Shown: positions 4,513 through 36,709 of the stretch, piece by piece | How the letters are laid out: every line of letters starts with the position of its first letter | Numbering within the stretch: the stretch's first letter is position 1 | Origin: a virus | Taxonomy: Duplodnaviria > Caudoviricetes | Length of the DNA: 64,000 nt | Strand: one strand, 5' to 3' | IMG/VR virus record: IMGVR_UViG_3300025012_000029 | Span: 1 to 64,000 of that record | Notes under the pieces: model-generated | Databases searched by the model: none | What the model was told of the DNA's origin: nothing | Seen by the model: the letters and a program-made list of their open reading frames with translations, nothing else | Translations under genes and position numbers: made by a program

Positions 4513-4885
4513 AATTTTCTTTTTCTTTCTCCAATTCTTTTTGGAGTTGTTGCTGTACTTCTTCGTTAATCACAGAAGACTCTTTTATTTCTTTCTTAGC
4601 TAGAAAGATCTCCGATTCTGTTTTTTGTGCTTGTGCCAGTATGTAACAATAGTCTTCCAAACTGGAGTCAATTTCTGAAAGTTGCTCCCTATACTGAGAA
4701 ATGTCATCAATAATTTGAGATATATTTTCACCGTCTCTCAAACGCCGAGCCAGTGAGGATAGGCTTTGCGTATTCGAGCCAAAAGATGTGTTCCAATTAA
4801 TCGAGTTACATATTTTATCAATTAGATCCGCAATTGTGTTTGGAACATCCCTTAAATTAATTTGATAGTTTATTCGCACTTTCAC
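4475..4885 (-). CDS. Coiled-coil hypothetical protein
   Basis: 136-aa ORF. Confidence 0.6.
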   Translation of the reverse strand: MKVRINYQINLRDVPNTIADLIDKICNSINWNTSFGSNTQSLSSLARRLRDGENISQIIDDISQYREQLSEIDSSLEDYCYILAQAQKTESEIFLAKKEIKESSVINEEVQQQLQKELEKEKENYDKTCRDIPSGG

Positions 4886-5597
4886 TTACATTTTCTTCCT
4901 TTCGTTTGGGTTGTTTCTTTTTCAGAAACCGTTCTTCAACTTCGATAATACGTGTAGTCCCGAATGGGAGAACTTTGTACTTTTTCCCACCTTTCACAGC
5001 GCTGGTAACTGGAGATGAATCAGTTTGAATCACATATGCTGGTTTAAAAGCTCTAGGAACGTCTCTATCAAGCTTGTTCGTTATGTAGACGAGAGATTTT
5101 ACAGGGAACTTTGGAGTGCTCAGAGTAGCTTCTAGCACCGCTCTAGCATACTTGTTTCCCGTCATGGCATCGAACTGTTTCTCAGTTGGAATAAATGTAG
5201 GATCTTGTAGAATTTTGAGTGCATTTTGATGAAAATAAGTTGTTCCCGAGTAGTATCTTGCTGCGATGGTAAGCATTTCTCTCATGTGTAGGTCTTTAAC
5301 GTACTTATCCTGCCACTCTTTTGCTTGTTCCTTTTTTTGTGGGGAAAAGGCGGATTCAATCCTCTCAAATGCGCGTAACTGCCTCTTTGTAAGACCGTTA
5401 TGTATACTAACAAATTCCTTTAAGGATTTAAGGAAATCCCTACTGCTAGTGTTCAGTGTAGGTTCTTTCAGAATCGATTCGATCCTGTCTTTGAATGATG
5501 AATTGATAACAATTGTATTCTGCGCATACATCATAGTATTACTATACGCTGACTGAATATAAATGTCAATAGAGAATTTATGAGACAGAAAAGACAC
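4857..5597 (-). CDS. Hypothetical protein
   Basis: 246-aa ORF; no motif recognised. Confidence 0.65.
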   Translation of the reverse strand: MSFLSHKFSIDIYIQSAYSNTMMYAQNTIVINSSFKDRIESILKEPTLNTSSRDFLKSLKEFVSIHNGLTKRQLRAFERIESAFSPQKKEQAKEWQDKYVKDLHMREMLTIAARYYSGTTYFHQNALKILQDPTFIPTEKQFDAMTGNKYARAVLEATLSTPKFPVKSLVYITNKLDRDVPRAFKPAYVIQTDSSPVTSAVKGGKKYKVLPFGTTRIIEVEERFLKKKQPKRKEENVSESANKLSN

Positions 5598-5611
5598 AGG
5601 GGGGTTAACTC

Positions 5612-5947
5612 TTATCTGTTGTTGGTGCGCAAGTTGTCAAGTTTGCCCTCAATCTTACCTAACCCCATTAGCAATTGACTTTGTTGTTGTTGTAGGACAT
5701 CCAACTTCATTGATTGATCTCTGAGGTTCTCTTCTACAGTCTCGATTTTTGTTTCTAAAACTTGCCCATTGCCGCGATCATAATATTTTTCGTTTGCTCT
5801 TCCGTCGAGGTATGTTGTCACGGTAACGACCGAAACAACACCAGCAATAAATATGCCTACAACTGCTATGATAAATGTTTTAATATTAAGGAAATTTCGA
5901 ACTGTCTTGACATCAACTTCGCCGTTTGACATTAATAGACCCTCCAA
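5612..5947 (-). CDS. Single-pass membrane protein with a coiled coil (lysis role possible, unproven)
   Basis: FIIAVVGIFIAGVVSVVTV transmembrane segment followed by a coiled coil. Confidence 0.55.
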   Translation of the reverse strand: MEGLLMSNGEVDVKTVRNFLNIKTFIIAVVGIFIAGVVSVVTVTTYLDGRANEKYYDRGNGQVLETKIETVEENLRDQSMKLDVLQQQQSQLLMGLGKIEGKLDNLRTNNR

Positions 5948-6009
5948 GGAATGAGATGATTTAAAGTAACTAGGAAGAATAAAACTATTATGTCTCTGAA
6001 ATTAATTTA

Positions 6010-7599
6010 TCATACTTCAACTATCGCGACAGACGTTGAGAGTAGAGTTCCAGCAGCACTTGCGGCATTTTGTAACGAACATCGAACAACTTTAAAAGGA
6101 TCAATAATGCCCTTTTCCATCATATTACATTCTTCATTTTTTGATATATCATATCCAAAATTCCAATCATTTGGCGTATTTAATATATTTTGAAGAAGAA
6201 CGTCAGCGCTCAGTCCGGCATTGCTAGCAATTTTCATAAATGGTTCTTTGACAGCGCGGCGAATTATATCAACACCATGACGCTGAGATTCATTTTCAAT
6301 TTCTATATTATCTAAAGCTAACGAAGCACGTACTAACGCACATCCGCCACCAGAAACAATTCCTTCTTGTTGAGCCGCATTTACTGCTTCTAGCGCATCT
6401 TCAACTCTGTGCTTCTTTTCAATCATTTCAACTTCGGTAGCTCCACCAACTTTTATGACAGCTATTCCGCTCGACAACCGTGTAACTCTATCTTGTATGC
6501 GTTCACACGCTGATATGTCGCTTGTAATTTCTATTTGATGCTTTAAAGAATCGATTCTTTCTTGTATTTTATCTTCTCTCCCGGACGCTGAAGAAACAAT
6601 TGTGGTAGCAAATTTGCTGGACTCCACAATTTGTGCCGTTCCTAAATCAGCCAATTTTATTTGCTTGAGATTAATACCAGAATCTCTACTAATAAATTTT
6701 GCTCCAGTTGTTAAAGCGATATCATCTAAAATATTTCGTCTTTCTTCTCCATACCTCGGAGCTTTGATAGCGCATACTTTTATATTGCCCTTCAGCGTAT
6801 TCATAATGAGAGCGGCCAATGCCTGTCCTTCTACTTGTTCAGCAATTATCACAAAAGATTTTTCAGCTCTCGAAACAAGTTCAAGTGCTGGTAAAATCTC
6901 CTCGATTGTACTAATATTTTTGTCCGTCACCATCACGAGACAATCTTCATATCGCATTACTCCTCGGCGCTCATCAGTTATGAACGCATTGGCAATTAAA
7001 CCAGAATCAAAAGAAAAACCCTCCGACACATCTAAAATAGTTTCTGACGTTCTTCCTTCTTGAATGGTTATTGACCCGTCTTTGCCGATTTTATCAACAG
7101 CAATGCCAATCAATTCCCCTATTGCTTTGTCTCCATTTGCACTAATGGTTGCTATTTGTACTATTTGTTCAATAGATGATATTGGTTTTGAGTGTTTTTC
7201 AACTTCCTTTACAATCAATTCAACTGCTTTATCTATTCCATTTTTAAGGTCTATTGAAGAATCGCCCGCTGTGATGTAGGATTGAGCCTTCTGAAAAATA
7301 GCATTGGCAATAATAATAGAAGTTGTGGTGCCATCACCTGCTTGCGCTACCGTCGATTCGGCCGCTTGTTTGATAATTTGGACACCCAGGTTTTCAAATG
7401 GATCCTCTAATTCAATTGCCTTAGCACAAGTAACGCCATCTTTTGTTATTAACGGTTTAAAATTTTTTCCCTTGATTATGACTGTTCTACCTTTCGGACC
7501 TAAAGTGCTACCAACTGCATCAGCGAGAATATTAACCCCTCTTAAAATCTTATCGTTCAGGGTTTTATTTGAATCTATCAACTTCACAAACATCTCCAT
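6010..7599 (-). CDS. groL: Phage-encoded chaperonin GroEL (Cpn60)
   Basis: TLGPKGR, TKDGVT, AGDGTTT, VEDAL, GGG and IIDP motifs. 529 aa with no GGM tail. Confidence 0.97.
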   Translation of the reverse strand: MEMFVKLIDSNKTLNDKILRGVNILADAVGSTLGPKGRTVIIKGKNFKPLITKDGVTCAKAIELEDPFENLGVQIIKQAAESTVAQAGDGTTTSIIIANAIFQKAQSYITAGDSSIDLKNGIDKAVELIVKEVEKHSKPISSIEQIVQIATISANGDKAIGELIGIAVDKIGKDGSITIQEGRTSETILDVSEGFSFDSGLIANAFITDERRGVMRYEDCLVMVTDKNISTIEEILPALELVSRAEKSFVIIAEQVEGQALAALIMNTLKGNIKVCAIKAPRYGEERRNILDDIALTTGAKFISRDSGINLKQIKLADLGTAQIVESSKFATTIVSSASGREDKIQERIDSLKHQIEITSDISACERIQDRVTRLSSGIAVIKVGGATEVEMIEKKHRVEDALEAVNAAQQEGIVSGGGCALVRASLALDNIEIENESQRHGVDIIRRAVKEPFMKIASNAGLSADVLLQNILNTPNDWNFGYDISKNEECNMMEKGIIDPFKVVRCSLQNAASAAGTLLSTSVAIVEV

Positions 7600-16638: not shown

Positions 16639-17109
16639 CTACTGTCCTGTACTGCCGAAGCCGCCTGTGCCGCGATCAGTTATAGTTAATTTTTTAACCT
16701 CTACGAATATTGCTCTGTTCACGGAGATTTCACCACGTCCTGAGGGATAAGTTCTATATCCCAACGCAACCATCTGAGCGATACGATCTCCAACATTTAT
16801 CTTAAATGTTTCATTCCCATGATTGATCAATATCACTTTAACTTCTCCAGTGAAATCAGAATCTATTGTCGCAGGAGAATTCAAAACAGTTATTCCATGT
16901 TTTGCTGCCAATCCAGAACGTGGACGAATTTGAATATCACAAAATTCTTGCGGCTGTACAGAAATTCCAGTTCCAACTAAGACGTGACATTTAGATGGTA
17001 TTTCAAGATCTTCTGTAGAAAATAAATCAGCTCCAGTTGATTTTGAAGTTGCGTAAAATGGTAATTTAGCATCTTCATTTAGTTTTTTTACATTTACAAT
17101 AAGACTCAT
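16639..17109 (-). CDS. dut: Trimeric dUTPase
   Basis: All five motifs: GADL, RSGLA, TIDSDFTGE, RIAQ, RGTGGFGSTG. Confidence 0.97.
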   Translation of the reverse strand: MSLIVNVKKLNEDAKLPFYATSKSTGADLFSTEDLEIPSKCHVLVGTGISVQPQEFCDIQIRPRSGLAAKHGITVLNSPATIDSDFTGEVKVILINHGNETFKINVGDRIAQMVALGYRTYPSGRGEISVNRAIFVEVKKLTITDRGTGGFGSTGQ

Positions 17110-17735
17110 TTTTCCTCCAATAATTTTATTAATTCAACGTCATTTCGTTGATAAAGTGGATGAACAGGTCGTCCATCTTTTGTTTTACGGAGACAGTATA
17201 GCTTATCTGGGTGCCACATTGTCAAGAACTTTAATACCTTTGTTTCTCTTTCTTTTGACCATTTCATTGCTCCCCATGCACAAATTATTTTGTCCGCTTC
17301 GGATGATAATTTCGTTATCCATAAATCATTTTCCGGAAGTCCAATTATATCAATACCTATTTTCTCAGCATTTAACATATCTTTTGGATTTGTTGCTCTA
17401 TACGCATAAATGTTGGCAACCTTCACGACATTAAATCCCCAACGAACGGCATAACCAAAACATCTTCTCACAGTTGGATCAAAAACGTTTTCGTCAGCGG
17501 TACTAGGATTGAGCATTATGAATAATACAGTCTTCTTTTCCTCATCAGGAAGACTCCAGTCCCTCGATAACACATAACGATATGTTTTATTTGGGCTAAA
17601 TTCAGCAGTTCCCTTCATATGAGGAGGAATAATATTATTTTTTTCGCCAGATAACTGGATATTCAAATTCGAGGTACTGTCTGTTTCCATGAATAAACCA
17701 CCACACTTTCCATTTATTTTTCCTATATCCTTCAA
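17106..17735 (-). CDS. DUF1643-family protein (true start probably near 17690)
   Basis: YRYVLSRDW, FIMLNPSTAD, HPLY. Confidence 0.82.
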   Translation of the reverse strand: MKDIGKINGKCGGLFMETDSTSNLNIQLSGEKNNIIPPHMKGTAEFSPNKTYRYVLSRDWSLPDEEKKTVLFIMLNPSTADENVFDPTVRRCFGYAVRWGFNVVKVANIYAYRATNPKDMLNAEKIGIDIIGLPENDLWITKLSSEADKIICAWGAMKWSKERETKVLKFLTMWHPDKLYCLRKTKDGRPVHPLYQRNDVELIKLLEEK

Positions 17736-17895
17736 TAATGTTTGGCATTTGCTCTATCCATTCTGGGAAAATATCTATTAGTTTTCCATTGGACATTTCT
17801 TTCGAAGACCATTTTAATGGTGTAGAAATAGAATCGTTTATCAACTTATAAATTTCTCCATCATTCATGACATAAGATTTTATATTATTTTCCAT
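17635..17895 (-). CDS. Hypothetical protein
   Basis: 86-aa ORF. Confidence 0.45.
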   Translation of the reverse strand: MENNIKSYVMNDGEIYKLINDSISTPLKWSSKEMSNGKLIDIFPEWIEQMPNIIEGYRKNKWKVWWFIHGNRQYLEFEYPVIWRKK

Positions 17896-17899
17896 ATCT

Positions 17900-18895
17900 T
17901 CATCCTATTAGTTGTAGATTTTTATTTGGCCAATTTACAGAAAAACCATATTTCTCATCGAATTCAAGACGAGAAACGTACGGCCTGTTAAATAAAACAG
18001 TATCATTTTCTCTCGGACTCCAACATTTAATTTTAATATCTTTTGATGAAGCTCCATCGGTTACAAATAATTCCCAGTACATTCGATTTGTTTTAGTCAT
18101 TTTTTTGTCAATTCGCCTAGGAACAAACCAAACCAATGGACGTTCTGGATTAAATTCAGAAATAGGAGGAATGTTCTTGGCTTCTAATTTAGTCATCACC
18201 TTCTCATCGATAAATAATGAGATTGGAAACATGCTGGTAAGTTCAGCCATAATTAAAACTTTTTCTTCGTCTGTGAAATCTGGTTCATTCTTATATTGTT
18301 CTATCTTCGCATACATTTCTAGTCTGGATTTAGGTCTGTCAAAGACAGTGCTCATCCAAAAATGGCGAAGATGATTGAAGTTGTTGTTCATTAATTTGTT
18401 ACAGGCTCCACTACGAATCAGAACGTCCAAACATTTTTTGTTCAATTTTTGATATTTGACTTTAGGATTGAATAACAAATCTTCAACTGTTTTGAAAGGA
18501 CGATTTTCAATTATCTGTTCTGTTGCCTTAGAACCAAAACCCTTAATTGATGTCAATGGCTGGATGAGCGTTTTACCAGTTTTGGCCGGAAGCCATTCTG
18601 TTCCAGAAGTATTTACATCTACATCGGCAATCTTATATCCTATATTCTTAACCATACTCATAGCAGCGGCTCTTGTTTTTTCTGGTTCTTCGTTGAGATA
18701 AGAACATAACCACTCAGAGGGATGATAAGTTAAAAGATGGGCACATTGGAAAGAAATGATGCTGTAAGAGATAGCATGACTATTCGAAACAGAAATGTCG
18801 TTGGCAAAAAACGAATGTTCTTCGTGTTCTACTTCAATGTCATAAGTCTCATCTTCTCCAACAGGTATTACTTCAATAATGTCTTCTTCTCGCAT
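17900..18895 (-). CDS. dnaE: DNA polymerase III alpha, fragment 3 (split-intein C half plus HhH/OB region)
   Basis: 38-aa IntC ending ...FFANDISVSN, then extein SHAISYS and HhH LTSIKGFG. Confidence 0.92.
   Translation of the reverse strand: MREEDIIEVIPVGEDETYDIEVEHEEHSFFANDISVSNSHAISYSIISFQCAHLLTYHPSEWLCSYLNEEPEKTRAAAMSMVKNIGYKIADVDVNTSGTEWLPAKTGKTLIQPLTSIKGFGSKATEQIIENRPFKTVEDLLFNPKVKYQKLNKKCLDVLIRSGACNKLMNNNFNHLRHFWMSTVFDRPKSRLEMYAKIEQYKNEPDFTDEEKVLIMAELTSMFPISLFIDEKVMTKLEAKNIPPISEFNPERPLVWFVPRRIDKKMTKTNRMYWELFVTDGASSKDIKIKCWSPRENDTVLFNRPYVSRLEFDEKYGFSVNWPNKNLQLIG
18782..18895 (-). mobile_element. Split intein C half (DnaE junction 2)
   Basis: TYDIEV...SFFAN..VSN|S: blocks F and G, penultimate Ser, terminal Asn, +1 Ser. 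Confidence 0.9.
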
Positions 18896-19860
18896 AAATG
18901 TTCTTTTACTTTCTCAATGACTTTCTCAATGTCTCTTTCTATTTCAGAAACCCAAATACGTAAATAACTCCAACCATTTTTCAATAAAAATACATTTTTA
19001 TTTTTATCATTTACAGCATTCCTTTTCTGGCAGGGGAACTTTAGAGAAAAACCTTCCTCTTTGTTAGAATGCCAGAAATCTCCATCAACCTCAACAGCAA
19101 TCTTCCATTCTGGAAAGGTAATGTCTATTGTATAAAAACCAAATAAAAACTGACTAACTATTTCTTCTTCTGGAAAATGTTGTTGTAATAAAGAAAACAA
19201 CAATAGTTCTGGTTTAGAAGTTTTACATCTATTATTTGCTATGTGTTCGGCAGTTTTTCTACGCAACAAGTTTTTTGTTTCTTCTGTGTGGTTGTGTCCT
19301 TTGTGCGGTTTTCCTGTTTTACACCACTGTGAGTTTATTTCTTTTATTTCTTTTGCCTTTTCTTCTCCATAAAGTTCAACAAGAGTTTTTCCACGACATC
19401 GCAAAGCATTTTTTTCCCATGCTCCACTTTTTTCAACATTATCTAACCACTTCTTTTTCTTCTCTGGATCATTTAGAACTTTATGAATGGGGTTATTTTT
19501 TCCTATTCTTCCGTCTGCTATTCGTTTCATAGACTCGCTAGTATTTTTTGTAAGTCCCTTGTTCCAAATGGCAGGGAAACATTTATTTGAACAAAACTTT
19601 TTATCACACCTAGTTTTTACTTTTATTCCAACTATTTCAAATAGGATGGCGTTTATCAGTCTCCTAGAATCTATTTTCATCTCCTTACCACAAGTAACAC
19701 AATTAGTATTCAAGTTATTTATAAATACTTTTTTTCTATTTTCCACTTCATCAATAAGTTCTTGATGTTTGGCATAGTCATAAACATGTCTTTTGAAAAC
19801 AGACGCAGAATATTCATTACTACAAATAGGACACAAAACTTTTGTTCTACATTTGGGCAT
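18868..19860 (-). CDS. Free-standing Vsr/DUF559-like homing endonuclease with a NUMOD3-like motif
   Basis: HKGHNHTEETK, TSKPE, YTIDITF...AVEVDGDFWH. Lies between the split-intein halves. Confidence 0.82.
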   Translation of the reverse strand: MPKCRTKVLCPICSNEYSASVFKRHVYDYAKHQELIDEVENRKKVFINNLNTNCVTCGKEMKIDSRRLINAILFEIVGIKVKTRCDKKFCSNKCFPAIWNKGLTKNTSESMKRIADGRIGKNNPIHKVLNDPEKKKKWLDNVEKSGAWEKNALRCRGKTLVELYGEEKAKEIKEINSQWCKTGKPHKGHNHTEETKNLLRRKTAEHIANNRCKTSKPELLLFSLLQQHFPEEEIVSQFLFGFYTIDITFPEWKIAVEVDGDFWHSNKEEGFSLKFPCQKRNAVNDKNKNVFLLKNGWSYLRIWVSEIERDIEKVIEKVKEHLCEKKTLLK

Positions 19861-19892
19861 ACAATAAATAGTTCTGTGTGATAGAATAAAAC

Positions 19893-20159
19893 CTAGTTTT
19901 TTACCACAACTTTCAACTTTCTGCTTATTATCTCTTCCAAAGTTTTCATTCCTTCACAAGTTTGTAGTTTGTGATCAAGCGTGCAAGTCAAGGTTTTCCC
20001 AGAAGCAGTTTTTATTTTGTAAAGTTTTTTCTTGCCATTTTGGTAGACGCTCTTTATTTTCACAAAACCATTTACACTATTGACTTCTTCTCCAATTTTT
20101 ACATCTTTTATTTCTTTTTTACCCTCTCTGGTTTCTACTAAACTGCTTCCGTGAATACA
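19893..20159 (-). mobile_element. Split intein N half (DnaE junction 2)
   Basis: 88 aa starting at Cys1 (CIHGSSLVET), with block B TCTLDH. Confidence 0.92.
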
Positions 20160-21440
20160 CTTGTTAAACGCGTAGCCGTTAAATGCCACCATATCTTGCC
20201 ACCATTTTTCGGCGTCATCCTTTGTCATCCCTTTTTCTGCACATCCATCAATAAATTTATTATGCAATCTATTTTTTACTTCTGCTTCTTTACCAGTTCC
20301 TTTTTTTGTCAACACTTTTCTCAACAAATTGGCATCATTTAGAGAAATATCTTTTCCAAGACTGTGCACCAAAGATGCTAACTGTTCTTGGAAAATAAGC
20401 AATCCGTAAGTTTTCTTTAAACATTTTTCCAAAATATCATTTTCAAACACTATTTTTTCAGGAAATTCCTTAAGAGAAAGATATCTTTTATCGACTTGCG
20501 CGCTCAAACAACCAGGTCTCCACACACTGGTTAAAACAGACAAATCGATCAAGCTCCTAGGTTTTGCCTGCTTTGTAAAATGCTGCATGCCTTTTGATGC
20601 GTCAAATTGAAAAATTCCTGCCCATTTTCCCTTATGAAAGACATTTTCATATACTTTTTGATCGTCAAAATCGATAACATTCGGGTGAAGCTTTGTATTA
20701 TAGAATTCTTTGATGTCAACGAAAGTAGGATTATCTTTTCCTTCTTTTTTCAAAATGAGTTTGATACAGTTTTCAAACATCCTTAAGGTTCCGAGTCCTA
20801 AAATATCAAATTTAATAAAACCCATTGGCTCTAAGTGTCTTACGTTTTGTCCTTCCGACCAAGGAGACTGTCTCACTCCTCCACTATAAATAAGAGGCAT
20901 ATGAGAAGGAAGATCTTCGCCTACAAGCAAACCTCCAGCATGTCTGCCACATGATCTAACTTGTCTGAAAAGATTCGCAACATGCTCTTCTATTTGTGGG
21001 TATTTTCCTAGAAATTTCCTAAATGACTCACTATATTTTAACACTTGCTCAAATGTTGGAGAAGTTGGAAGTACGCCAGATTTAATCCCCAACTCTTTTT
21101 TAATTTCTGGAACTGATTCCAAAAACATTATTGTTGTAATATCGTTAACTTCCTTGTATGGAATACCATAAAACTTTGAAATATCTTTAATGAGAGATTT
21201 CAATTGTAATGTATTCCAATTGGAAATGGAAACAACATTATCTTCTCCCCACATTTCAACAATGGTTCTCTTTACTTCATCGTTGTTGCCAACGTCAAAG
21301 TCAATATCTGGCATATCAGCAGATTTATCATTTCTAACATAGAAAGAAATGTTTTTATTTCTTACGATAGTTTGGGTTTGCGTAGGGATTGTTTGAATGA
21401 CAAACTTTCCTTCAATAGTTTCAACTTTTTTTATTAGCAT
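19893..21440 (-). CDS. dnaE: DNA polymerase III alpha, fragment 2 (palm/fingers) flanked by a degenerate IntC and a canonical IntN
   Basis: MPDIDFD, GRHAGG, KFDILGL, GIFQF, YGLLIFQEQ, YAFNK|CIHGSS. Confidence 0.94.
   Translation of the reverse strand: MLIKKVETIEGKFVIQTIPTQTQTIVRNKNISFYVRNDKSADMPDIDFDVGNNDEVKRTIVEMWGEDNVVSISNWNTLQLKSLIKDISKFYGIPYKEVNDITTIMFLESVPEIKKELGIKSGVLPTSPTFEQVLKYSESFRKFLGKYPQIEEHVANLFRQVRSCGRHAGGLLVGEDLPSHMPLIYSGGVRQSPWSEGQNVRHLEPMGFIKFDILGLGTLRMFENCIKLILKKEGKDNPTFVDIKEFYNTKLHPNVIDFDDQKVYENVFHKGKWAGIFQFDASKGMQHFTKQAKPRSLIDLSVLTSVWRPGCLSAQVDKRYLSLKEFPEKIVFENDILEKCLKKTYGLLIFQEQLASLVHSLGKDISLNDANLLRKVLTKKGTGKEAEVKNRLHNKFIDGCAEKGMTKDDAEKWWQDMVAFNGYAFNKCIHGSSLVETREGKKEIKDVKIGEEVNSVNGFVKIKSVYQNGKKKLYKIKTASGKTLTCTLDHKLQTCEGMKTLEEIISRKLKVVVKN
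21330..21440 (-). mobile_element. Degenerate IntC-like segment (DnaE junction 1)
   Basis: 37 aa ending ...TIPT...IVRNKN..FYVRN, followed by Asp rather than Cys/Ser/Thr. Confidence 0.6.
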
Positions 21441-22368
21441 TCTCTTCTCTTATTTTTGTTGTTCTATTTTTTACAGATGAAAATGTCCTGTAAGGAAAAA
21501 GCGTCTCTTGTATTTGTCTTACGGACATTTTACCATAATAAGTTCTCAATAGCAAGTCTTCTTCTTTTTCCCATTTTACTTCAAAATGCTTTTTCAGTCC
21601 TAATAAGTGTATTCTTTTTTCTATTCCTTCGTAAGTTCTGTAAGGTAAAAAAGTTTCCATTATTTTTCTACAAGACATTTTACTATGATTTTGTTTTAGA
21701 ATGTCTAGTTCTTCTGGAGTCCATTCCAAATAAGTTCCATAATCTTGTCTTATGGTTTTTACTTTATCCCATTTTCTATTCAGTTTTGGAACTTCTATTT
21801 TATTCAAGTGTTCTAATAACAAAAATGCTTTTCTTTTATTACAATAAAAAGTATAAACTGATTTTGTTTTTCTTAGATGTCCTATTTTTTCATTTAGTAT
21901 TTCTTCAAACCTTTTTATTATCCACTCAAGAAAAACTTTTGTTCCAACAATAGACAAATCAATGGAGTTTGTTTTTTTGTTAGAATAAAGACATCCATCA
22001 CCATCTATGTATCCCACAATAAAGGCATCAATAAAATCTCTATTTGTTATTGGCGGGAAAGCACAAAGAAATGTTTTGTTCGGAATAATGTTGTACTTCT
22101 GTTCAAGATCAAAACATACTTCTTTTGAAGAAAATGAAACAGACGAATAAAGGTACCCATCTTTATTCTCAAATATCCTAACAGGACAAGATAGTTCCAC
22201 AAACTTGGCAAATGATTCTAAGTGAGAATGGTCTTTTCGAGATAGACTCATAGAGAAACCACCCTTTCCAGAAACAGACCCATCAGCAGTAATAAAACCA
22301 GCCCAATAACAAGATACAATGTCAACTTCCGAAAAACAGTTTTCGTTCACAAAATACTTTTTTACCAT
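21421..22368 (-). CDS. Free-standing LAGLIDADG homing endonuclease with C-terminal Myb/SANT-like repeats
   Basis: YWAGFITADG and FIVGYIDGDG motifs, plus two W..EE..LL...RT...I..R repeats. Confidence 0.88.
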   Translation of the reverse strand: MVKKYFVNENCFSEVDIVSCYWAGFITADGSVSGKGGFSMSLSRKDHSHLESFAKFVELSCPVRIFENKDGYLYSSVSFSSKEVCFDLEQKYNIIPNKTFLCAFPPITNRDFIDAFIVGYIDGDGCLYSNKKTNSIDLSIVGTKVFLEWIIKRFEEILNEKIGHLRKTKSVYTFYCNKRKAFLLLEHLNKIEVPKLNRKWDKVKTIRQDYGTYLEWTPEELDILKQNHSKMSCRKIMETFLPYRTYEGIEKRIHLLGLKKHFEVKWEKEEDLLLRTYYGKMSVRQIQETLFPYRTFSSVKNRTTKIREENANKKS

Positions 22369-22375
22369 AACATAA

Positions 22376-23974
22376 CTAGTCTTTGTCTGGAGAAACTATT
22401 TCATCGTTTTCTAAAACGTTTGACGCTTTTTCCCACTGTTTTGTTCCATTTCTGCGTATTTTACATTGCGTATTGGGAGTTAGTAAAATCACTTTGCCAT
22501 CAGTGGTTTCTATTTTTATCATTTTACTTATTTTCGAAAAACTATTTGATTCTCCTAACGAATATCCTACATCATCTTCGGCATCGGAACGAAGGAATCT
22601 CTCAAACATCAAACCCCATTTTATTGGATTGACTTGGGTGATTCCAAGAACATAACTGACAAGGGAACCGGCGCCCGAACCTCTCCCACAGCCGGTAATC
22701 TGTAATGAATTTGCTTTATCAGCGATGGACTTCATTGTCAAAAAGTATCTGCTGAATCCTCTTCCTTGAATGACTTTGAGTTCTGTTTGAAGTTTCTTCT
22801 CGTATTCAGGTCTCTCTGTTGGGGACAAAGATAGTTTTTTTAGTCCCTCTTCTGCCATTTGTGTTAGAGCACTGTCATCAGTCATTCCATCAGGAACAAC
22901 AAAAGAAGGAAGACGAATAGTATTATCAGGCATAAAATCTTCAATCATGTTAAAAGCGATATGGTGTGCATTTGTAATAGATTTTAGGATCAAGTCAGAG
23001 TCATATTTTATACCATTCATAGAAGAATATTTTTCATATGCCTCCATCATTTGATCGCCATTCTTGGGATAAAGTTCATATCCAACTTCATCGATCGAAT
23101 CGGGCAAACTCTTTTGTTCTTTTTTGTTGAATCCTGGACGGAGGTTCTTATATAAGATTCTGTCTTTCCAAAGTTCAGGACGCGGATAATGACTATCTGC
23201 TGTTGATATTAATGGTAAATCATATTCTTTGGATAGTTGAATGATGTATTGATTGATATCGTGTTGTGCTGGAATATTATTCCATTGTAGTTCTCCAAAC
23301 CATCTGTCATTAAAGATCTTTTGCATTCGTTCTGTGGTATTGCGCATCGCATTAAGAATGATATCAGAGCCTTTTTCTAGATTTTCCCAATAATCTTGGG
23401 CATAAACTCCACCAAGGCAAGCACTGCTAGCAATTACTCCTTCATTATGTTTCTGTAAAAGTTCGTAATCAATTCGTGGAAACTTATAGAAACATGAAGG
23501 TTTAAAACTTTCAGAAATAAGACTGAAAATATTATTTAGCCCTATTTGGTTTTGGGCAAGAAGAATCAAATGTGCGCGAGCATTAAGAGGATTTTTCTTT
23601 TTCTTCGATGCTTCTTCGTCTTCAACAACTGTACCACCTTGTTCATCTTCTTCTTTTACTTTATCTTTGTTTTGTTTTTCTAGAGCTTTTGCTGATTTAA
23701 GCTCGCGCCAGTCTGCAAGAGATGGAATGAAGTATGCTTCAACTCCATATATAGGCTTAAAATTCTTGCCATCTGCTTTTAGTTTCTTAGAGTACAGGAT
23801 CTGATAAGCCGTGCCGTTCATATTCCCATGATCACTTAATGCCAGAGAATTCATTCCGTTATCTATTGCATAATCAATTGATTCGTTTGGATATCCAATA
23901 GCATCGAATGGACTTCCACATGTGGAATGAGCGTGAAGTCCGACAAAAGGAATTTTACTTTCTTTTTTTGACAT
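22376..23974 (-). CDS. dnaE: DNA polymerase III alpha, fragment 1 (PHP domain to FERFL) with a degenerate IntN-like tail
   Basis: LHAHS, SDHG, GVEAY, HLILLA, TADSHY, GRGSGAGSLV.Y.LGIT, FERFL. Confidence 0.94.
   Translation of the reverse strand: MSKKESKIPFVGLHAHSTCGSPFDAIGYPNESIDYAIDNGMNSLALSDHGNMNGTAYQILYSKKLKADGKNFKPIYGVEAYFIPSLADWRELKSAKALEKQNKDKVKEEDEQGGTVVEDEEASKKKKNPLNARAHLILLAQNQIGLNNIFSLISESFKPSCFYKFPRIDYELLQKHNEGVIASSACLGGVYAQDYWENLEKGSDIILNAMRNTTERMQKIFNDRWFGELQWNNIPAQHDINQYIIQLSKEYDLPLISTADSHYPRPELWKDRILYKNLRPGFNKKEQKSLPDSIDEVGYELYPKNGDQMMEAYEKYSSMNGIKYDSDLILKSITNAHHIAFNMIEDFMPDNTIRLPSFVVPDGMTDDSALTQMAEEGLKKLSLSPTERPEYEKKLQTELKVIQGRGFSRYFLTMKSIADKANSLQITGCGRGSGAGSLVSYVLGITQVNPIKWGLMFERFLRSDAEDDVGYSLGESNSFSKISKMIKIETTDGKVILLTPNTQCKIRRNGTKQWEKASNVLENDEIVSPDKD
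22379..22588 (-). mobile_element. Degenerate IntN-like segment (DnaE junction 1)
   Basis: 70 aa after FERFLR containing MIKIETTDGKVILLTPNT...WEKASNVLENDEIV. Block B-like, with His replaced by Thr and block A truncated. Confidence 0.6.
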
Positions 23975-24224
23975 TAATGTTCTTTGCTTTCTTATCTCCC
24001 TCTAAGATAGAGGGCTCAATTGTTTGAAGAGTCTTCGAATTGGAGAAACCAGGTATGGAGTAAATTTGTGAATCCCAGAAATAATCACAGCTAAATTGTT
24101 TTAATACTAAACAATAGGGCGGATCGACAAAAAATGATTGAAGTCTTCCGGGTTTCGCTATATGTCTATAGCATATATCTTTTTTGGGACAATTATTGCC
24201 AGGGCACATGGTAATATCAGGCAC
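23955..24224 (-). CDS. Small Cys-rich phage protein
   Basis: DITMC....CP....CYR pattern. Confidence 0.6.
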   Translation of the reverse strand: MPDITMCPGNNCPKKDICYRHIAKPGRLQSFFVDPPYCLVLKQFSCDYFWDSQIYSIPGFSNSKTLQTIEPSILEGDKKAKNINVKKRK

Positions 24225-24261
24225 AAGACAACACTACATTAAGAACGGACAATTGTCAAAA

Positions 24262-24519
24262 TTAAACGTCCATTTCTTTGCTAAAATATCGCTCCAGTGT
24301 TCGTAAGCGCTGTATACATACAAACGTACTATAAGCAGACACCAATCCAATCGATAATGATAAAAATCCCAAGGAAATATCAATAATTGGCATCATTGTC
24401 CACGGAACCAACCTAGATTTTTCTATAATTGAACCCACCTCATATCCACACAGCCACAATACAATTGAAGATGTTAGTAAATTATCGATAAATATAAATA
24501 AATTTTTCATCTGCTTCAC
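24262..24519 (-). CDS. Small membrane protein
   Basis: Two hydrophobic segments. Confidence 0.5.
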   Translation of the reverse strand: MKQMKNLFIFIDNLLTSSIVLWLCGYEVGSIIEKSRLVPWTMMPIIDISLGFLSLSIGLVSAYSTFVCIQRLRTLERYFSKEMDV

Positions 24520-24764
24520 GATTTCAAATATAAATTCAAATGTCTGACTGCGTTTTGTAAGGCTGCTCTTTCGTAATATTTGTCATAATCCTCACGTAAT
24601 TTCTCCAAAATTTCAATACAATCTTGAATTGTTCTAAAATTTGTTTCTTCTGTGTATTCGAGCCATTCACGAGTGAGCTTATCGTGAGTAGTGTATTCTG
24701 CTTGCCTTCGCGCTCTATATCGCTTTCGATCTCCCAGCAATATACTATTCGATTGTTTCGTCAT
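24516..24764 (-). CDS. Hypothetical protein
   Basis: 82-aa ORF. Confidence 0.5.
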   Translation of the reverse strand: MTKQSNSILLGDRKRYRARRQAEYTTHDKLTREWLEYTEETNFRTIQDCIEILEKLREDYDKYYERAALQNAVRHLNLYLKS

Positions 24765-25698
24765 TGCCGTAGGCTCCTATTCCGTTCCAATAACTTTCCG
24801 GTCTCAGTCTCAATAAAGCTGTCTTTGGACGATGCATTTTATGTCTGTCCTCTGAACCTAAATATTCGCACAATCCATTCCAAGATGAAATATTGTGATA
24901 CCATGGAACGCTCATACAATAACTTTCGTCCATATTGAGTTTACTAAAAATATCACCAACGGTTAAAAATCTCCCTGAATATCTTTCTTCAAATGGTAAA
25001 TTTTTTAGTTTGATAGCATGAGTCGACTTTGGATCTATACCGTCTTCAAGTGGCGCTCGAATTCCTGTTGCTTGCTGTCTGAATTCTTTTCTAAGAATTT
25101 TAATATCTTCTTCTCCAAGAGAGCAGGAAAGAAATTCTCCGTCGCGAATTGTTTTTCCATTAAACGAAACAAAAAAACGTTTCTCGTATGCTACTTTATG
25201 CCTGTATTTTACAAGATACTGTGATGGAAAAACCCCATATGGAAACGCAATATAATATTTGGCAGGCACCATCCATTTACTCAATCGAACGCTTATATTT
25301 CTAGCAATTTTGGCGCCATATAATATACTCCAAACTAAAGAATCTCTTTTATCTTTGTCTTTGGGATGGGCAGGAACATAGTAAATGGGAACATATTTTC
25401 TTCCTTCAACCTTATACTTTTTAATTCTCAACGATCGACCATAAAAATATGGATCCAAAACATATTCGCCAATTCTATGTTTTAGTAGAGGTTGAATATT
25501 GGCTGGACAGATTATCCATATAGTTTTACATCCAGCAGTAGCGCATTCTAAAACTGCCCGTTCGACTGCTAAAAAATCCTGGGCAATTGGCTGCATGGAA
25601 TCATGCCAGGGAAATTCAAAATCCAATGGAATTCCAGCAATGGGAATAATGCCAGGAATATGGATAGAATTTATGAGCTTACTTATTGGTCTTTTCAT
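24745..25698 (-). CDS. Divergent nucleotidyltransferase (GT-A fold)-like protein
   Basis: N-terminal GIIPIAG and a P...QPI pattern resembling sugar-phosphate NTP transferases. The GxGTR loop is not intact. Confidence 0.45.
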   Translation of the reverse strand: MKRPISKLINSIHIPGIIPIAGIPLDFEFPWHDSMQPIAQDFLAVERAVLECATAGCKTIWIICPANIQPLLKHRIGEYVLDPYFYGRSLRIKKYKVEGRKYVPIYYVPAHPKDKDKRDSLVWSILYGAKIARNISVRLSKWMVPAKYYIAFPYGVFPSQYLVKYRHKVAYEKRFFVSFNGKTIRDGEFLSCSLGEEDIKILRKEFRQQATGIRAPLEDGIDPKSTHAIKLKNLPFEERYSGRFLTVGDIFSKLNMDESYCMSVPWYHNISSWNGLCEYLGSEDRHKMHRPKTALLRLRPESYWNGIGAYGNDETIE

Positions 25699-32420: not shown

Positions 32421-35400
32421 TTAAGATCCACATGAACCTCCTTTATTCATAGCGCATGCGTCTCCATATTCTAAATATGTTTCTCCAACATGCTTCATAG
32501 CAAGAGAATATTTTACTGGGGTAAGAGGCTGTCCACCACGAGCACCATCTGGGTAACAGGTAATTCCTCTCAATTTTGGAAGATAATTTATTAAAATATC
32601 TCCAAATTTTCTAACAGTATCTTCATTGTTATCAGCAGAACCCCATGGAGGAAGGTTGATAGTGGAACTGATCCCATGGTCAACAAATCGTTGTACCCAA
32701 GCTTGGAATTCTATTCTTCGTTCAACGTTCTTTGCTAAATCATACGCATCTTCTATTGAATCTGGATCGAGGTTATTTTTTTCTATTAGACGTTTTGCAG
32801 TAGGATCCAACACATATTGATATTCAATCAATTCTGGTCCTTTTTTATAACGTCTTTTATAACTAACGCAGAAAATTGGCTCAATGCCCGTTGTAGTTTC
32901 CGACACAATTCCTATAGTTCCATTTGGAGCAATTGCTCTAGTTTTAATCGGACTAGTTAATTCCCACTTTTCAGCATATTCATGAGCAATTTCTGTACTA
33001 GTGCTGTAAATTTTCAAATACTGTTCTAGTTCTGGGTCGGGTCCGTACTTTTTTCCTCTCATAAGCAACCATTCATGAATGCCCATTAATCCGAGTCCTA
33101 GGCGCCTATTCTTCGAACGAACTTGATCTACTTTGGCATAAGGAACGTCTGAATAGACAGTGCCAGCCAACAAAAAACAAGTCCCTAATTCTACTAGGTC
33201 TTTCATTTCTTCTAGCGAAGATACTCTGGCAAGATTAATACTGCCAAGATTGCAAATATCTGAATCATCGCGCGATGTTACCTCAGTGCATTGACCAGTC
33301 AAAACACCATCAAAAACTCCAGTATGATTTTTAGGTTCATTAAAACAATAAACATTTTCTTCTATACCTCCTTCAGAAACTGATACTACAAAAACAAATT
33401 GACTAGCGTCTCTGTTTGGAGATTTGTCAAACGACAAACGTTCACATTTTAAACCCAATTCTTTCAAATTTTGTATTTGTTGCGCGCCGATTAGCAATCT
33501 ATAAAGATCTTTACAATAATATTCTTTTAGTCCTCCTTCCGCATCGGGAAGCATTCTAAATCCAGCTTTGTGTCCTAATGTTACTTTACTATTTATTCCT
33601 ATCGTAGAAAGCATCTTCTGAGCATCTAAAAGAAAATTTTTATCAACGGAGCCTATTTGGCATCCGCCTTCTTTTAATTCAGTTCCATCTCCATCTATCA
33701 ATCCAGCCAACCAATTTAATTTTCCATTCAAGTTCCACTCAAGTGGAACAAAAGATTTCAAATATTTTTCAAAATCTGGTCTAACAGTCGTTTTACTATT
33801 GCTGCTGTGAAAATTTTTATTTTCTTTTATCGAAAGGCGACTCAAACAGCAATATTTTGTGTCGTACACTGAAAAGAAATTGTAATCGTCCATTCCTTCG
33901 GCAGAAAGGAAGCCTTGTGTGTACGCTTCTTTTGCATCAACATCCTCTCCTTCTTTTATTATTGGAAATGTCCCTTTAATCAATTTCATTCCTGGCTGAA
34001 GATTGTAGGCTTCCACTTTTTCAGAAGCTCCATGATAATCTTTTGAAATAATAAATTTATGATATTCAGTGCATCTCAACACCCTTCCGTCACTTAATAC
34101 AACATCAACCATTGGTTGCATTCGTCCAGTTAGTTTTATTTCAACATTTGACCATTCGAACCCGTTCCATACGTCAATTGACTGGTTAACCAATGATGAA
34201 ATTGGTCGATAACCATTTTTAGTTAGAATTTCCGTTTCGCCCGAAACACATGCATTCCTCAGGGTTTCACCGGAATTATCACCAATATCTACTGAAAATC
34301 CTGGCTCACCAGTTTCTAGCATATTTCTGACGACCAACCAATAAATTGCTTGAGAATGGGAATGTTGTGGATGTTTCTCGTCATAGAAGGCTTTAAAAAA
34401 AACATCATCTAATAGAACAGAAATATTCGTCATATCCAATGGAGCGGGAAAATTAAAATCCTTCTTTTTTAAAGATTTGACATCCTCAGTCCAATCTTTG
34501 AGTTTAACAAATTTATATATGTCGGCATGGCTCCAATTTAGTCCAGACCAAATTGCCGAGTTATGCACAAGATATCCATTGCAGAAAAATTGATTTTTGT
34601 TTTCTACTTCAATATCATATGTTTCAACGATTCTTCCTTCCTCGATTCCTAAAATTTTAATAGGGGTAAAATTTAAATCTTTTTTAATAACACGTTCTAT
34701 CATTTCAATACTAACGGCAACATTTTTGTCATGATGAAGATTTCTAGGTCTTTTTTCAAATGATGCATTAATCAAACTGCCATCAAAAGAATAAGAAAAT
34801 TGTTCTTTCGTTCCAGAATTTTCATAAATGTCCCCTTTCAAAATAAAAGATCCAATTAGTTTTTTAAGTTTTAGAAGTTGCTTGGTATTACAAACATTTA
34901 ATTGATATAAAGATTTCCATTTTCCAATTTCTTTTCTTACAAGTTTAATTCTGGAAACAATTCCCAATGACGCCAATAGTGATTGTAATTGATTTAAGAA
35001 TTCTGGATAAATCGACGATGCAATATTTATTGGGCGAGACGATAAACTTCCATCTGAATCAACAATTCCAGCAATGTATGCACACCTAATTTCTGGCCTC
35101 GCACACATTATACATTCTGGTACGTCAATTGAAACATTTGGTTTTTTAAACCACGATTGCAAATAAGTAGCCAACTGCACAGACGAGCATTTAACATTCC
35201 ATAGTTTTCCATCACCTGGTGATGATATAACGTTTACTCCAAATCTTTCCAATTGTTTTATAGCTTTATCTTTAATTTCTGGGTAATCAAAAGAACAAGC
35301 AATACTCACTCGGCCGTGAAGTTTGTTTTGTTTATCTTTGCCCAAATAAGCATAGCCATCTCCGTGAATCAACCCCAACAACCAAGCTATACCAGAGTCT

Positions 35401-36248
35401 AGTTCGGGAATTTTTATATCTATTATAGACGTGCAATGAATTGATTTTTCATACGAAAAATTTGGTAATTTTGTAGGACCGAATTCCAGCAATTTTCCAT
35501 TAAAAATCAATCTATCTTGGTTCGAAAGGTCTTTGGCTTTTTTCCACTCAAATTCTCCGAAACAATTAGTCAACACAGCCACTCTGTGATTTTCAGTGCA
35601 TTCAAAAAATCCAGTTTGAGTTTTAATTTTTATAGTTTTTTGCTGTCCTTGATCAAATATGTTCAACACTTTTTCAAATCCATCAAATGTTTGAACCAAA
35701 TCTTCAGTTGTTATATCTTCTATCTTTTTTAACCCATACAAAGTATGAACTAGAGAGCCTTTCGGGAGACACCTTCTCGATCCTCCCTGCATAACTCCTC
35801 TACCAACTTCATTAATCATCTGCATAAGTGCCGTTGGTCCGGTTGCCTTGCCTCCGGTTTTTCTAATTGGTTTCCCTTCCGGTCTTATTTTTGAATAATC
35901 AACTCCAATTCCTGCCCCTGTCATTAAAGCCATCGACGACTTATGTAATAAATCCGACCAACCTTCACGAGAATCTTCTACACTCAGCATAAGACAATTT
36001 TGAGTTTGGTGATATGGGCGCCCAGAGGCATATAGGTATCGTCCTCCAGGAATGAATTTTCTATCTCTTATTGCTATATGAACTCTTTCAGATAGAGACT
36101 TTGAAGCGTTAACTGACTTCATAACATGTTTTGCCACTCTGTAGGATATGTTATCCCAATTTTCCAAAGTTCCATCTTTTAATGGATGTGCATATCGCTG
36201 CTCTGTTATTGTTTTCGCAAAAACACTCATATCGTTTTCAAAATTCAT
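32421..36248 (-). CDS. nrdJ: Class II (B12-dependent) ribonucleotide reductase with two cis inteins
   Basis: PGGRYLY, QNC, GEPG, NA|CTE, CNLGSIN, LGLGLMG, IAPNGT, GIEP, ISSTINLP. About 551 aa after removing the inteins. No small subunit in the window. Confidence 0.9.
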   Translation of the reverse strand: MNFENDMSVFAKTITEQRYAHPLKDGTLENWDNISYRVAKHVMKSVNASKSLSERVHIAIRDRKFIPGGRYLYASGRPYHQTQNCLMLSVEDSREGWSDLLHKSSMALMTGAGIGVDYSKIRPEGKPIRKTGGKATGPTALMQMINEVGRGVMQGGSRRCLPKGSLVHTLYGLKKIEDITTEDLVQTFDGFEKVLNIFDQGQQKTIKIKTQTGFFECTENHRVAVLTNCFGEFEWKKAKDLSNQDRLIFNGKLLEFGPTKLPNFSYEKSIHCTSIIDIKIPELDSGIAWLLGLIHGDGYAYLGKDKQNKLHGRVSIACSFDYPEIKDKAIKQLERFGVNVISSPGDGKLWNVKCSSVQLATYLQSWFKKPNVSIDVPECIMCARPEIRCAYIAGIVDSDGSLSSRPINIASSIYPEFLNQLQSLLASLGIVSRIKLVRKEIGKWKSLYQLNVCNTKQLLKLKKLIGSFILKGDIYENSGTKEQFSYSFDGSLINASFEKRPRNLHHDKNVAVSIEMIERVIKKDLNFTPIKILGIEEGRIVETYDIEVENKNQFFCNGYLVHNSAIWSGLNWSHADIYKFVKLKDWTEDVKSLKKKDFNFPAPLDMTNISVLLDDVFFKAFYDEKHPQHSHSQAIYWLVVRNMLETGEPGFSVDIGDNSGETLRNACVSGETEILTKNGYRPISSLVNQSIDVWNGFEWSNVEIKLTGRMQPMVDVVLSDGRVLRCTEYHKFIISKDYHGASEKVEAYNLQPGMKLIKGTFPIIKEGEDVDAKEAYTQGFLSAEGMDDYNFFSVYDTKYCCLSRLSIKENKNFHSSNSKTTVRPDFEKYLKSFVPLEWNLNGKLNWLAGLIDGDGTELKEGGCQIGSVDKNFLLDAQKMLSTIGINSKVTLGHKAGFRMLPDAEGGLKEYYCKDLYRLLIGAQQIQNLKELGLKCERLSFDKSPNRDASQFVFVVSVSEGGIEENVYCFNEPKNHTGVFDGVLTGQCTEVTSRDDSDICNLGSINLARVSSLEEMKDLVELGTCFLLAGTVYSDVPYAKVDQVRSKNRRLGLGLMGIHEWLLMRGKKYGPDPELEQYLKIYSTSTEIAHEYAEKWELTSPIKTRAIAPNGTIGIVSETTTGIEPIFCVSYKRRYKKGPELIEYQYVLDPTAKRLIEKNNLDPDSIEDAYDLAKNVERRIEFQAWVQRFVDHGISSTINLPPWGSADNNEDTVRKFGDILINYLPKLRGITCYPDGARGGQPLTPVKYSLAMKHVGETYLEYGDACAMNKGGSCGS
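33291..34250 (-). mobile_element. RNR intein 2 (320 aa, LAGLIDADG, C-terminal Gln)
   Basis: CVSGET...LAGLIDGDG...GVLTGQ|C. Confidence 0.92.
34560..35771 (-). mobile_element. RNR intein 1 (404 aa, LAGLIDADG)
   Basis: CLPKGS...CTENH...LGLIHGDG...AGIVDSDG...YLVHN|S. Confidence 0.93.
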
Positions 36249-36709
36249 TAAACAATTCCTCCATTATTTTCTTTATATTTCTTGTATTTTGCTCTCATGC
36301 GGCGTTTTTGCTCTTCCACGTCCACTAACGATGAAATATCTTTACGAGGATCAAAATCTCCCAAAATACGTATATCTACATTTGATGGATCCATAAAAAT
36401 ATTAAATGTCATTCCATCTGGACCATTTCTATTTTTGCAGACAGACAATCTTCCTGTATTTTTGTTTTTATCTTCTTGCGTTCTCGCAAGTCCAAGAGTA
36501 AGGTATGAGCCAAAATTTTTATTTAGTGCTTCTGATGTTTGTTCCATTTGTACGGTATTTGAACTCAAACCTGAATTATGGGAATATATATCATTTGCAA
36601 AAAAATAGTGATGCTTTTCCAAACATATATCGATTGTATCTTCTTCGTCACATTCTTCAATGTTTGTTATTTCCATCAAATCAAAATCGTTTAAATTAAG
36701 TTTATCCAT
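36248..36709 (-). CDS. dnaB: Replicative helicase, C-terminal fragment with a 45-aa split-intein C half
   Basis: IntC ...FFANDIYSHN|SGLSS, then helicase KNRNGPDG. Confidence 0.9.
   Translation of the reverse strand: MDKLNLNDFDLMEITNIEECDEEDTIDICLEKHHYFFANDIYSHNSGLSSNTVQMEQTSEALNKNFGSYLTLGLARTQEDKNKNTGRLSVCKNRNGPDGMTFNIFMDPSNVDIRILGDFDPRKDISSLVDVEEQKRRMRAKYKKYKENNGGIV

Follow-up and report, generated by a model that had tools for sequence, protein, structure and literature searches.

Can a phage copy its DNA with a replicase whose gene has been cut into three pieces by two endonuclease genes, and how would the pieces be brought together again? This question is raised by dnaE, the gene for the DNA polymerase III alpha subunit, in a phage (Duplodnaviria; Caudoviricetes) whose genome comes from groundwater. 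The stretch of DNA analysed here, referred to as the window, is the first 64 kb (positions 1 to 64,000) of the 201,144-bp IMG/VR virus record IMGVR_UViG_3300025012_000029, which CheckV rates as complete. The fractured gene lies at 17900-23974 on the minus strand. An earlier note, made from the sequence alone, had described intein-like sequences at the breaks and had envisaged an enzyme assembled from three chains. We regard it as reasonably probable that the phage's only dnaE was invaded twice by endonuclease cassettes and that the two breaks are dealt with differently: at the downstream break (junction 2) the adjoining chains would be spliced, while at the upstream break (junction 1) they would associate non-covalently, which gives a two-chain DnaE with a relic clasp.

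One DnaE in five reading frames

Five open reading frames (ORFs) occupy the whole span, all on the minus strand. In the direction of the gene these are dnaE-1 (P0001, 22376-23974, 532 amino acids (aa)), a LAGLIDADG-Myb endonuclease gene (P0002, 21421-22368, 315 aa), dnaE-2 (P0003, 19893-21440, 515 aa), a Vsr-like endonuclease gene (P0004, 18868-19860, 330 aa) and dnaE-3 (P0005, 17900-18895, 331 aa). The three pieces and two endonuclease genes of the earlier note were all found at their coordinates, and the tight packing it reported is seen in a 7-nucleotide (nt) gap, a 20-nt overlap, a 32-nt gap and a 28-nt overlap, counted from P0001 to P0005. In Pfam, P0001 matches PHP and positions 2-97 of the 260 of DNA_pol3_alpha, P0003 matches positions 96-260 of DNA_pol3_alpha together with DNA_pol3_finger, and P0005 matches HHH_6. 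As the PHROGs coordinates on phrog_405 run on from one fragment to the next (P0001 39-435, P0003 440-793, P0005 793-989), the fragments are collinear pieces of one DnaE.

The dnaE-1 extein (P0001 1-464; 22583..23974) comprises the PHP domain together with the initial part of the palm, ends in ...FERFLRSD and is collinear with unbroken relatives. It is continued by the dnaE-2 extein (P0003 38-427; 20160..21329), which has the catalytic PDIDFD motif, completes the palm, adds the fingers and ends in ...YAFNK, and by the dnaE-3 extein (P0005 39-331; 17903..18781, with the stop codon at 17900-17902), which starts with SHAISY and includes the helix-hairpin-helix and C-terminal region. The sum of the exteins is near full length, as had been claimed, although the boundaries drawn here give 464+390+293 = 1147 aa rather than 1145. 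An intact dnaE elsewhere was looked for with PF07733: no second match exists in the 201,144-bp genome, so this is the sole dnaE.

A further doubt is that several strains might have been assembled into one. The identical P0003 or the identical five-gene block is found on 10 contigs, which derive from at least 4 independent assemblies of groundwater metagenomes. The four assemblies with identical P0003 were made by different assemblers, and neighbouring genes agree as far as the contigs extend. Positions 17000-25000 are spanned without a gap by contigs from two samples that bridge both junctions, junction 1 is traversed by a single 28-kb contig, and all five ORFs are intact on the 10 contigs. 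Since the block recurs across assemblies and contigs bridge both junctions, misassembly is very unlikely and the arrangement stands: the gene is fractured twice.

Junction 2, a predicted trans-splicing intein

At junction 2, the extein sequence ...YAFNK427 is followed by C428-IHGSS, the start of an 88-aa N-intein (P0003 428-515; 19896..20159, stop codon 19893-19895) with block B at T487-L-D-H490. P0005 opens with a 38-aa C-intein (residues 1-38; 18782..18895) that contains block F, YDIEVEHEEHSFFAN, and block G, ISVSN38, and is followed by S39-HAISY. Cys/Ser1, the TxxH of block B, blocks F and G, the terminal Asn and the +1 nucleophile are therefore all present. The dnaE-2 and dnaE-3 exteins adjoin exactly, in one frame and with no gain or loss against unbroken relatives (e.g. 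7218/7216). The best PDB match of the N-intein is the gp41-1 intein (E 1.3e-8), and Pfam Intein_splicing and Hint match it as well; for the C-intein, all six PDB matches are inteins (DnaX, PolB16, NrdJ-1, gp41-1; E 0.07-0.9).

The description of this junction as a near-canonical split intein with a penultimate Ser agrees with the residues found (K427/C428, N38/S39 and Ser37). The same site and intein are present in four related loci (L030, L172, L173 and L174), and because the ending (T/V)SN/SH recurs in L030, L172 and L174, the penultimate Ser is a family trait and not a defect. On these sequence features junction 2 is classified as a canonical gp41-1-like class-1 split intein that keeps all catalytic residues, and trans-splicing is predicted. 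The two intein halves would associate after translation and splice in trans, leaving ...YAFNK-SHAISY... within a chain of ~720 aa. A two-chain enzyme is more likely as the end product than the three-chain assembly of the earlier note or one ligated chain.

Junction 1, the probable remains of a split intein

Junction 1 separates ERFLRSD from MPDIDFD, immediately ahead of the catalytic aspartates. P0001 runs 68 aa past ...FERFLRSD464 (the tail, residues 465-532; 22379..22582, stop codon 22376-22378), and P0003 begins with 37 aa (the head, residues 1-37; 21330..21440) before it continues with DKSAD-MPDIDFD. By the alignment of eight heads, the head ends in an invariant Asn37, followed in the window by Asp38.

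Searched as a single sequence, the tail has no match in Pfam and just E=1 matches to the RadA intein in the PDB; among 5.8 billion proteins it retrieves only itself, and among 1.84 billion representatives nothing but two repeat-protein false positives. Single-sequence searches for related loci with the tail, P0002, P0004 and P0005:1-120 found none, and the homologous junction-1 loci came from an alignment query and protein look-ups. When a profile of the tail is used, 8 of its 13 PDB matches are inteins or hedgehog Hint domains, every one of them aligned at block B. Against a profile of six N-inteins, hhalign gives a probability of 87% (E 3.7e-6) and pairs tail columns 20-66 with N-intein columns 43-87, which is the second half of the N-intein. 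An ESM Atlas model of residues 465-531 has almost exclusively intein-bearing proteins as structural neighbours (TM 0.63-0.70), the top one being a cluster of 131 DnaE N-fragments that are mostly viral and ~478 aa long. Profile and predicted structure both indicate that the tail is Hint-derived and represents the latter half of an N-intein.

BLAST and MAFFT alignments in which tail and head overlapped the adjacent parts of dnaE pointed to another source, a partial duplication of the gene, but profile scores led to its rejection. Hidden Markov models (HMMs) of the flanking dnaE scored tail and head no better than shuffles, 526 and 2000 of 2000 of which reached the observed score. The short RSD/RND similarity to dnaE stays ambiguous after this test. 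The junction-1 tails are extra sequence that is not derived from dnaE and is absent from unbroken homologues.

The residues needed for splicing are missing. In the window, block B reads TPNT instead of TxxH and Val-Gly stands at the expected Cys1 position. Among seven tails there is no conserved Cys, Ser or Thr at the start, where the residue preceding an invariant Gly is V/E/C/V/F/E/I, and the block-B His is missing in all seven (TPNT, TPNV, SPET, TENV, SPNL, TPGL, SPEV). No counterpart of the first ~40 N-intein profile columns, block A included, was detected in the tail by hhalign. On the other side of the break, the head resembles a C-intein in length and ending, with block-G-like endings in L087 (NGLLVHN) and L086 (HNGFMLQN), but the +1 nucleophile is lacking: across the eight loci the residue after the invariant Asn is D (window), P, P, I, R, R, P and T, and the penultimate one is R/S/R/Q/H/R/R/R. 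To our knowledge, every known splicing class needs Cys, Ser or Thr at +1. Canonical trans-splicing at junction 1 is excluded because Cys/Ser1 and the block-B His are absent and the +1 residue is Asp. The proposal of a working split intein at this junction is not supported, although the tail is Hint-derived.

The junction-1 break in other phages

Homologues of P0002 (33-54% identity) occupy the exact same dnaE site in seven further loci (L083, L084/L085, L086, L087, L088, L089 and L090). In these the downstream dnaE fragment is unbroken (~716 aa), and tails and heads align with those of the window. Three cultured phages of Cellulophaga (phi13:1, phiST and phi19:2) carry dnaE as gp038 and gp039, two genes 1 nt apart that are cut at the junction-1 site. 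Their tail is homologous, their head measures only ~18 aa and an endonuclease gene is absent; each of the two is annotated merely as "DNA polymerase III alpha subunit". As cultured phages carry the same break, it is compatible with a working replicase, and two further observations point the same way: the cluster of viral N-fragments among the structural neighbours of the tail, and a contig from the human gut. This human faecal phage contig (MT835494.1; L171:3190-8766) is also cut at the ERFL/PDID site. Here a DNA methyltransferase gene and an HNH endonuclease gene form the insert, the tail starts with Cys (FLVPER/CGLSW) and block B reads CTDAR. The tail is kept in all ~10 lineages with the break, even where the endonuclease gene has been lost.

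Constraint on the relic was assessed from nonsynonymous (pN) versus synonymous (pS) differences instead of dN/dS, synonymous sites being saturated in most pairs. Between L089 and L090, pN and pS are 0.30 and 0.77 in the tail and 0.21 and 0.96 in the head, near the extein values, and the heads of L087 and L088 give a dN/dS of ~0.25.

How the two chains may be held together

The explanation favoured here begins with two homing-endonuclease cassettes that invade the phage's only dnaE, after which each junction is repaired in its own way. While junction 2 would be spliced as described above, junction 1 would be a split-intein fossil, half an N-intein plus a 37-aa head, which without nucleophiles or block-B His would bring about no ligation. 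The dnaE-1 chain of 532 aa would then remain separate from the spliced dnaE-2/3 chain and assemble with it non-covalently, with relic tail and head probably serving as a β-strand clasp next to the catalytic aspartates, in analogy to the element-derived tails of the mobE-split NrdA of phage Aeh1. The two-chain DnaE proposed in this way has the same architecture as the enzyme of phages fractured at junction 1 only. A broader formulation, held more tentatively and a little short of an even chance, regards tail and head as an exapted post-intein, that is, a non-splicing split Hint domain which acts as a clasp or as an Asn-cleavable aid in groundwater, marine and Cellulophaga phages, with the wider group forming a reservoir of multiply fractured replicases.

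Several observations weigh against the favoured explanation. Among the sequencing runs listed with the locus there is no RNA run. Between the window and L084, tail and head have pN of 0.49-0.51 and pS of 0.60-0.66 and are thus evolving fast, and any constraint on the relic in the window's own lineage is putative. The head profile shows no significant similarity to a C-intein profile (hhalign probability 4%), and of the Hint-like tags that had been proposed for both ends of the middle fragment, the C-terminal one is an N-intein, but the N-terminal one lacks this similarity. A tail-head complex predicted by ESMFold2 scored 0.38 against 0.01 for the best of three controls, graded as weak support (contact agreement between runs at least 66%, partner predicted local distance difference test (pLDDT) at least 52). 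In calibration, 51 of 78 solved complexes reached the mark, as did 2 of 108 mismatched pairs; at 0.60 or below, it was reached by just 5 of the 78 solved complexes, yet by all 4 mismatches that passed. Asn37, the only invariant head residue across the eight loci, is seven residues before PDID, the same spacing as that of the Asn in bacterial FLNPER-x-SMPDID. As its position equals that of the FLNPER Asn it is ambiguous: it may be the polymerase's own residue and not the relic's, or it may act in Asn cyclisation. Furthermore, the phage has a 399-aa reading frame with similarity to family-A DNA polymerase (51 bits summed for PF00476; 43112-43753, minus strand), so DnaE need not be its sole replicative enzyme.

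Some of these points would be expected if tail and head were inert leftovers and the fragments assembled through the native PHP/palm-finger interfaces of DnaE. This is unlikely, even though it is in line with the fast divergence in the window's lineage, the Cellulophaga head of just ~18 aa, the missing C-intein similarity and the reported finding of Crona et al. (PMC3045599) that the tails of the split Aeh1 NrdA are unneeded for heterodimer formation itself. Inert sequence is difficult to reconcile with a tail that persists in all ~10 lineages, including those without an endonuclease gene, with pN far under pS in L089/L090 and L087/L088, and with a tail-head score that, though weak, is well over the controls.

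A second alternative makes the relic a removable assembly chaperone near the active site: after relic assembly Asn37 would cyclise, which would cut the 37-aa head off dnaE-2. Uncoupled C-terminal cleavage occurs in intein mutants and bacterial intein-like domains, and the invariance of Asn37 in the eight loci would be explained. This mechanism is nonetheless very unlikely, as blocks F and G do not conserve the His residues that would assist, the penultimate position is variable and Asn37 may belong to the FLN motif of the extein.

It is likewise very unlikely that both junctions are working split inteins whose two trans-splicing reactions yield one full-length DnaE chain. The tail is indeed Hint-derived, the heads end in the invariant Asn (with NGLLVHN in L087), and L084 and L171 keep a Cys right before the invariant Gly. 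Against this stand the absence of a conserved position-1 nucleophile and of the block-B His, the loss of about half of the N-intein, and a +1 residue that is Asp in the window and D, P, I or R in 7 of the 8 loci.

Finally, removal of the junction-1 insert as a group I intron with a LAGLIDADG ORF, restoring the dnaE-1/2 frame at the RNA level, or a dead or misassembled locus, is highly improbable. LAGLIDADG genes are typical intron passengers, and Bacillus phage 0305phi8-36 has a related one (H65) in its dnaE that carries the annotation of a mobile intron protein. Yet a search of 17800-24100 with Rfam gave no family at E up to 1, tail and head on either side of the insert have a Hint-like fold and are constrained at the codon level, the Cellulophaga genes are 1 nt apart, the five ORFs are intact on 10 contigs from at least 4 assemblies, and contigs from two samples bridge both junctions.

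Recurrence of fractures in related replicases

A scan of IMG/VR gave 518 related dnaE loci, the best 80 of which were compared for frame state. In ~74 of these 80 the three dnaE segments form one uninterrupted frame. Four loci are broken at junction 2 alone (L030, L032, L034 and L065). In L065 (4633-9198) a junction-2 N-part of 959 aa is followed by a 295-aa Vsr-like gene; the dnaE-3 fragment was not found within the ~5 kb downstream that the locus contains and may lie elsewhere in that genome.

Two further loci, L172 and L174, were reached through small dnaE-3-like proteins. L172, from groundwater, has the closest relative of dnaE-3 (65% identity) and is intact at junction 1. Its dnaE (3066-7499) consists of three ORFs of 691, 397 and 332 aa with canonical split inteins at a third site, QVRS/CGRHAGG (J3), and at FNK/SH (junction 2); neither endonuclease gene is left, apart from a 24-aa remnant of one. 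L174 (1-4384) has the same two fractures, each with a Vsr-like gene (271 aa and 326 aa), and its contig stops short of junction 1.

The group thus shows at least three fracture sites in the combinations junction 1 alone, junction 2 alone, J3 with junction 2, and junction 1 with junction 2. Double fracture recurs in this phage group, since L172 and L174 are doubly fractured at the other combination of sites. The combination of junctions 1 and 2, and with it the pairing of a dead and a live junction in one replicase gene, is confined to the window's phage among the loci examined. A doubly fractured replicase had been called unusual. In literature searches of incomplete coverage, neither a natural gene with two fractures nor the Cellulophaga dnaE split was found described; L172 and L174, however, qualify the statement.

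In a phylogeny of the middle extein, L084/L085, which are split at junction 1, come out as sister of the window (support 100/95), and junction-1-split genes appear at several places. Because long outgroup branches make the rooting unsafe, no conclusion is drawn on ancestral splitting versus spread by homing. A megablast search of the region against GenBank phages gave no match. Two other irregularities were seen among the related loci: an in-frame 1389-bp insert near residue 186 of dnaE-1 in L124 (3112-4500), possibly a contiguous intein, and a frame change inside dnaE-3, at about residues 72-78, in L040 (2480-2686).

The endonuclease genes and their decay

P0002 is a free-standing LAGLIDADG homing endonuclease that has two such motifs, with a pair of Myb/SANT-like repeats at its C-terminus, and matches PF14528/LAGLIDADG_3 (E 3.8e-7), phrog_4645 (endonuclease) and phrog_323. 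Its motifs read YWAGFITADG and VGYIDGDG. The acidic and Gly residues of both motifs are invariant among its homologues (310 were found), with D29, G30 and D122-G125 invariant in 30 of them. P0004 exceeds the cut-off for DUF559 (PF04480; 28.2 bits against 20.6), matches MTES_1575 (PF18741) and Vsr (PF03852) below their cut-offs, and also matches phrog_559 and phrog_3339; a sequence search against the PDB gave no match. It has Cys-rich N-terminal motifs and the core E257-V-D-G-D-F-W-H, and is a putative free-standing Vsr-like homing endonuclease of the EDxHD type. The Vsr-like endonuclease family known from fractured genes is the one later termed EDxHD (I-Bth0305I). The 326-aa protein of L174 is an orthologue of P0004, 58% identical and at the same site.

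In the population of the window's phage, a variant with a 665-bp deletion co-occurs with the full-length form. Positions 19202-19866, which cover most of the Vsr-like gene, are gone, and the variant was seen in 4 of 4 runs mapped. Its depth in run X1 is 18.5 (contig joint) against ~60-66 for the full-length form, about a quarter. A counterpart of the deletion is found in L173 (6187-6528), which retains a 113-aa remnant with 96% identity to the P0004 C-terminus. In relatives the endonuclease gene is in decay, in agreement with what is expected from the homing cycle.

Other inteins in the genome and significance

The number of inteins in this genome is unusually high, with nine matches to the Intein_splicing HMM that fall in six reading frames. 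The replicative helicase gene is fractured as well (36248-39058, minus strand): a 443-aa N-part ends with ...SQTNR/CFSVDT, the start of an N-intein, and is followed by a 341-aa Vsr-like endonuclease ORF (36702-37727; 32% identity to P0004 over 81 aa) and a 153-aa C-part with a C-intein ending in YSHN/SGLSS. Because the helicase is also fractured, the genome appears to hold two live gp41-type split inteins. A ribonucleotide-reductase-like ORF of 1275 aa (32421-36248, minus strand) contains two contiguous inteins, CLPKGSLV...LVHN/S with a LAGLIDADG-like middle and CVSGETEI... ending in Gln. Frames of 1204 aa and 843 aa, at genome positions ~80.8-82.9 kb and 157.2-158.3 kb, have two Intein_splicing matches each.

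Split inteins from fractured phage genes, such as gp41-1, NrdJ-1 and IMPDH-1, are standard tools of protein engineering. The locus and its relatives contribute a gp41-1-like intein that occupies a new site in DnaE, and the three-piece proteins of the relatives imply intein pairs that do not cross-react within one cell. If L172 does hold two live split inteins in one protein, these must be orthogonal in vivo. Junction 1 is an apparent evolutionary endpoint, with catalysis lost and the element still attached to both halves of the enzyme, which is not described in the literature searched. Should the relic function as a clasp, it would be a small natural heterodimerisation module and would show that a gene can stay permanently split after its selfish element has decayed. 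The cultured Cellulophaga phages make the interpretation of junction 1 directly testable.

Comparison with known systems

Junction 2 follows the fractured genes described by Dassa, London, Stoddard and Pietrokovski in 2009, in which split intein halves flank a free-standing endonuclease gene (PMC2677866), and the layout identifies it as an instance of this known arrangement, as had been proposed. N-extein with N-intein, a short spacer, a same-strand Vsr-like ORF and C-intein with C-extein follow each other in both cases, the spacer being 32 nt here and 27-51 nt in PMC2677866. The intein closest to that of junction 2, gp41-1, is itself from that data set, which includes three DnaE loci from the Global Ocean Sampling (GOS) at different sites, one with a Vsr-like endonuclease. 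Each of those loci has one fracture, its DnaE-1 locus adding merely part of an in-frame intein. By contrast, the dnaE of the window is broken a second time, 1.2 kb upstream, where a LAGLIDADG endonuclease is accompanied by a non-functional intein; the word "LAGLIDADG" is absent from the text of PMC2677866.

The split DnaE intein of cyanobacteria (Ssp/Npu, FAEY/CFNKSH) resides in the same host protein, and junction 2 lies in the same FNKSH motif; both have a penultimate residue other than His. Junction 2 is inserted three residues further on (FNK/SH versus EY/CFNK) and is of the gp41-1 type, and its halves adjoin with an endonuclease gene between them, whereas those of Ssp/Npu are at distant loci.

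For junction 1, the two-gene DnaE of the Cellulophaga phages has the same ERFL-PDID break and a homologous tail on the N-fragment. It differs from the window in the absence of an endonuclease gene (1-nt spacer), in the shorter head and in the lack of a second fracture. The nearest precedent is nrdA of Aeromonas phage Aeh1, which, as reported by Crona et al. (PMC3045599), is split by the mobE endonuclease gene and assembled without splicing through element-derived C- and N-terminal tails that are essential for activity. Both cases concern an essential gene of DNA metabolism cut by a free-standing endonuclease gene, with tail and head absent from unbroken homologues and devoid of splicing chemistry, and non-covalent assembly would be shared. 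The tail at junction 1 differs in being recognisably a fragment of a Hint domain, and break and tail are common to many divergent phages, with or without an endonuclease gene.

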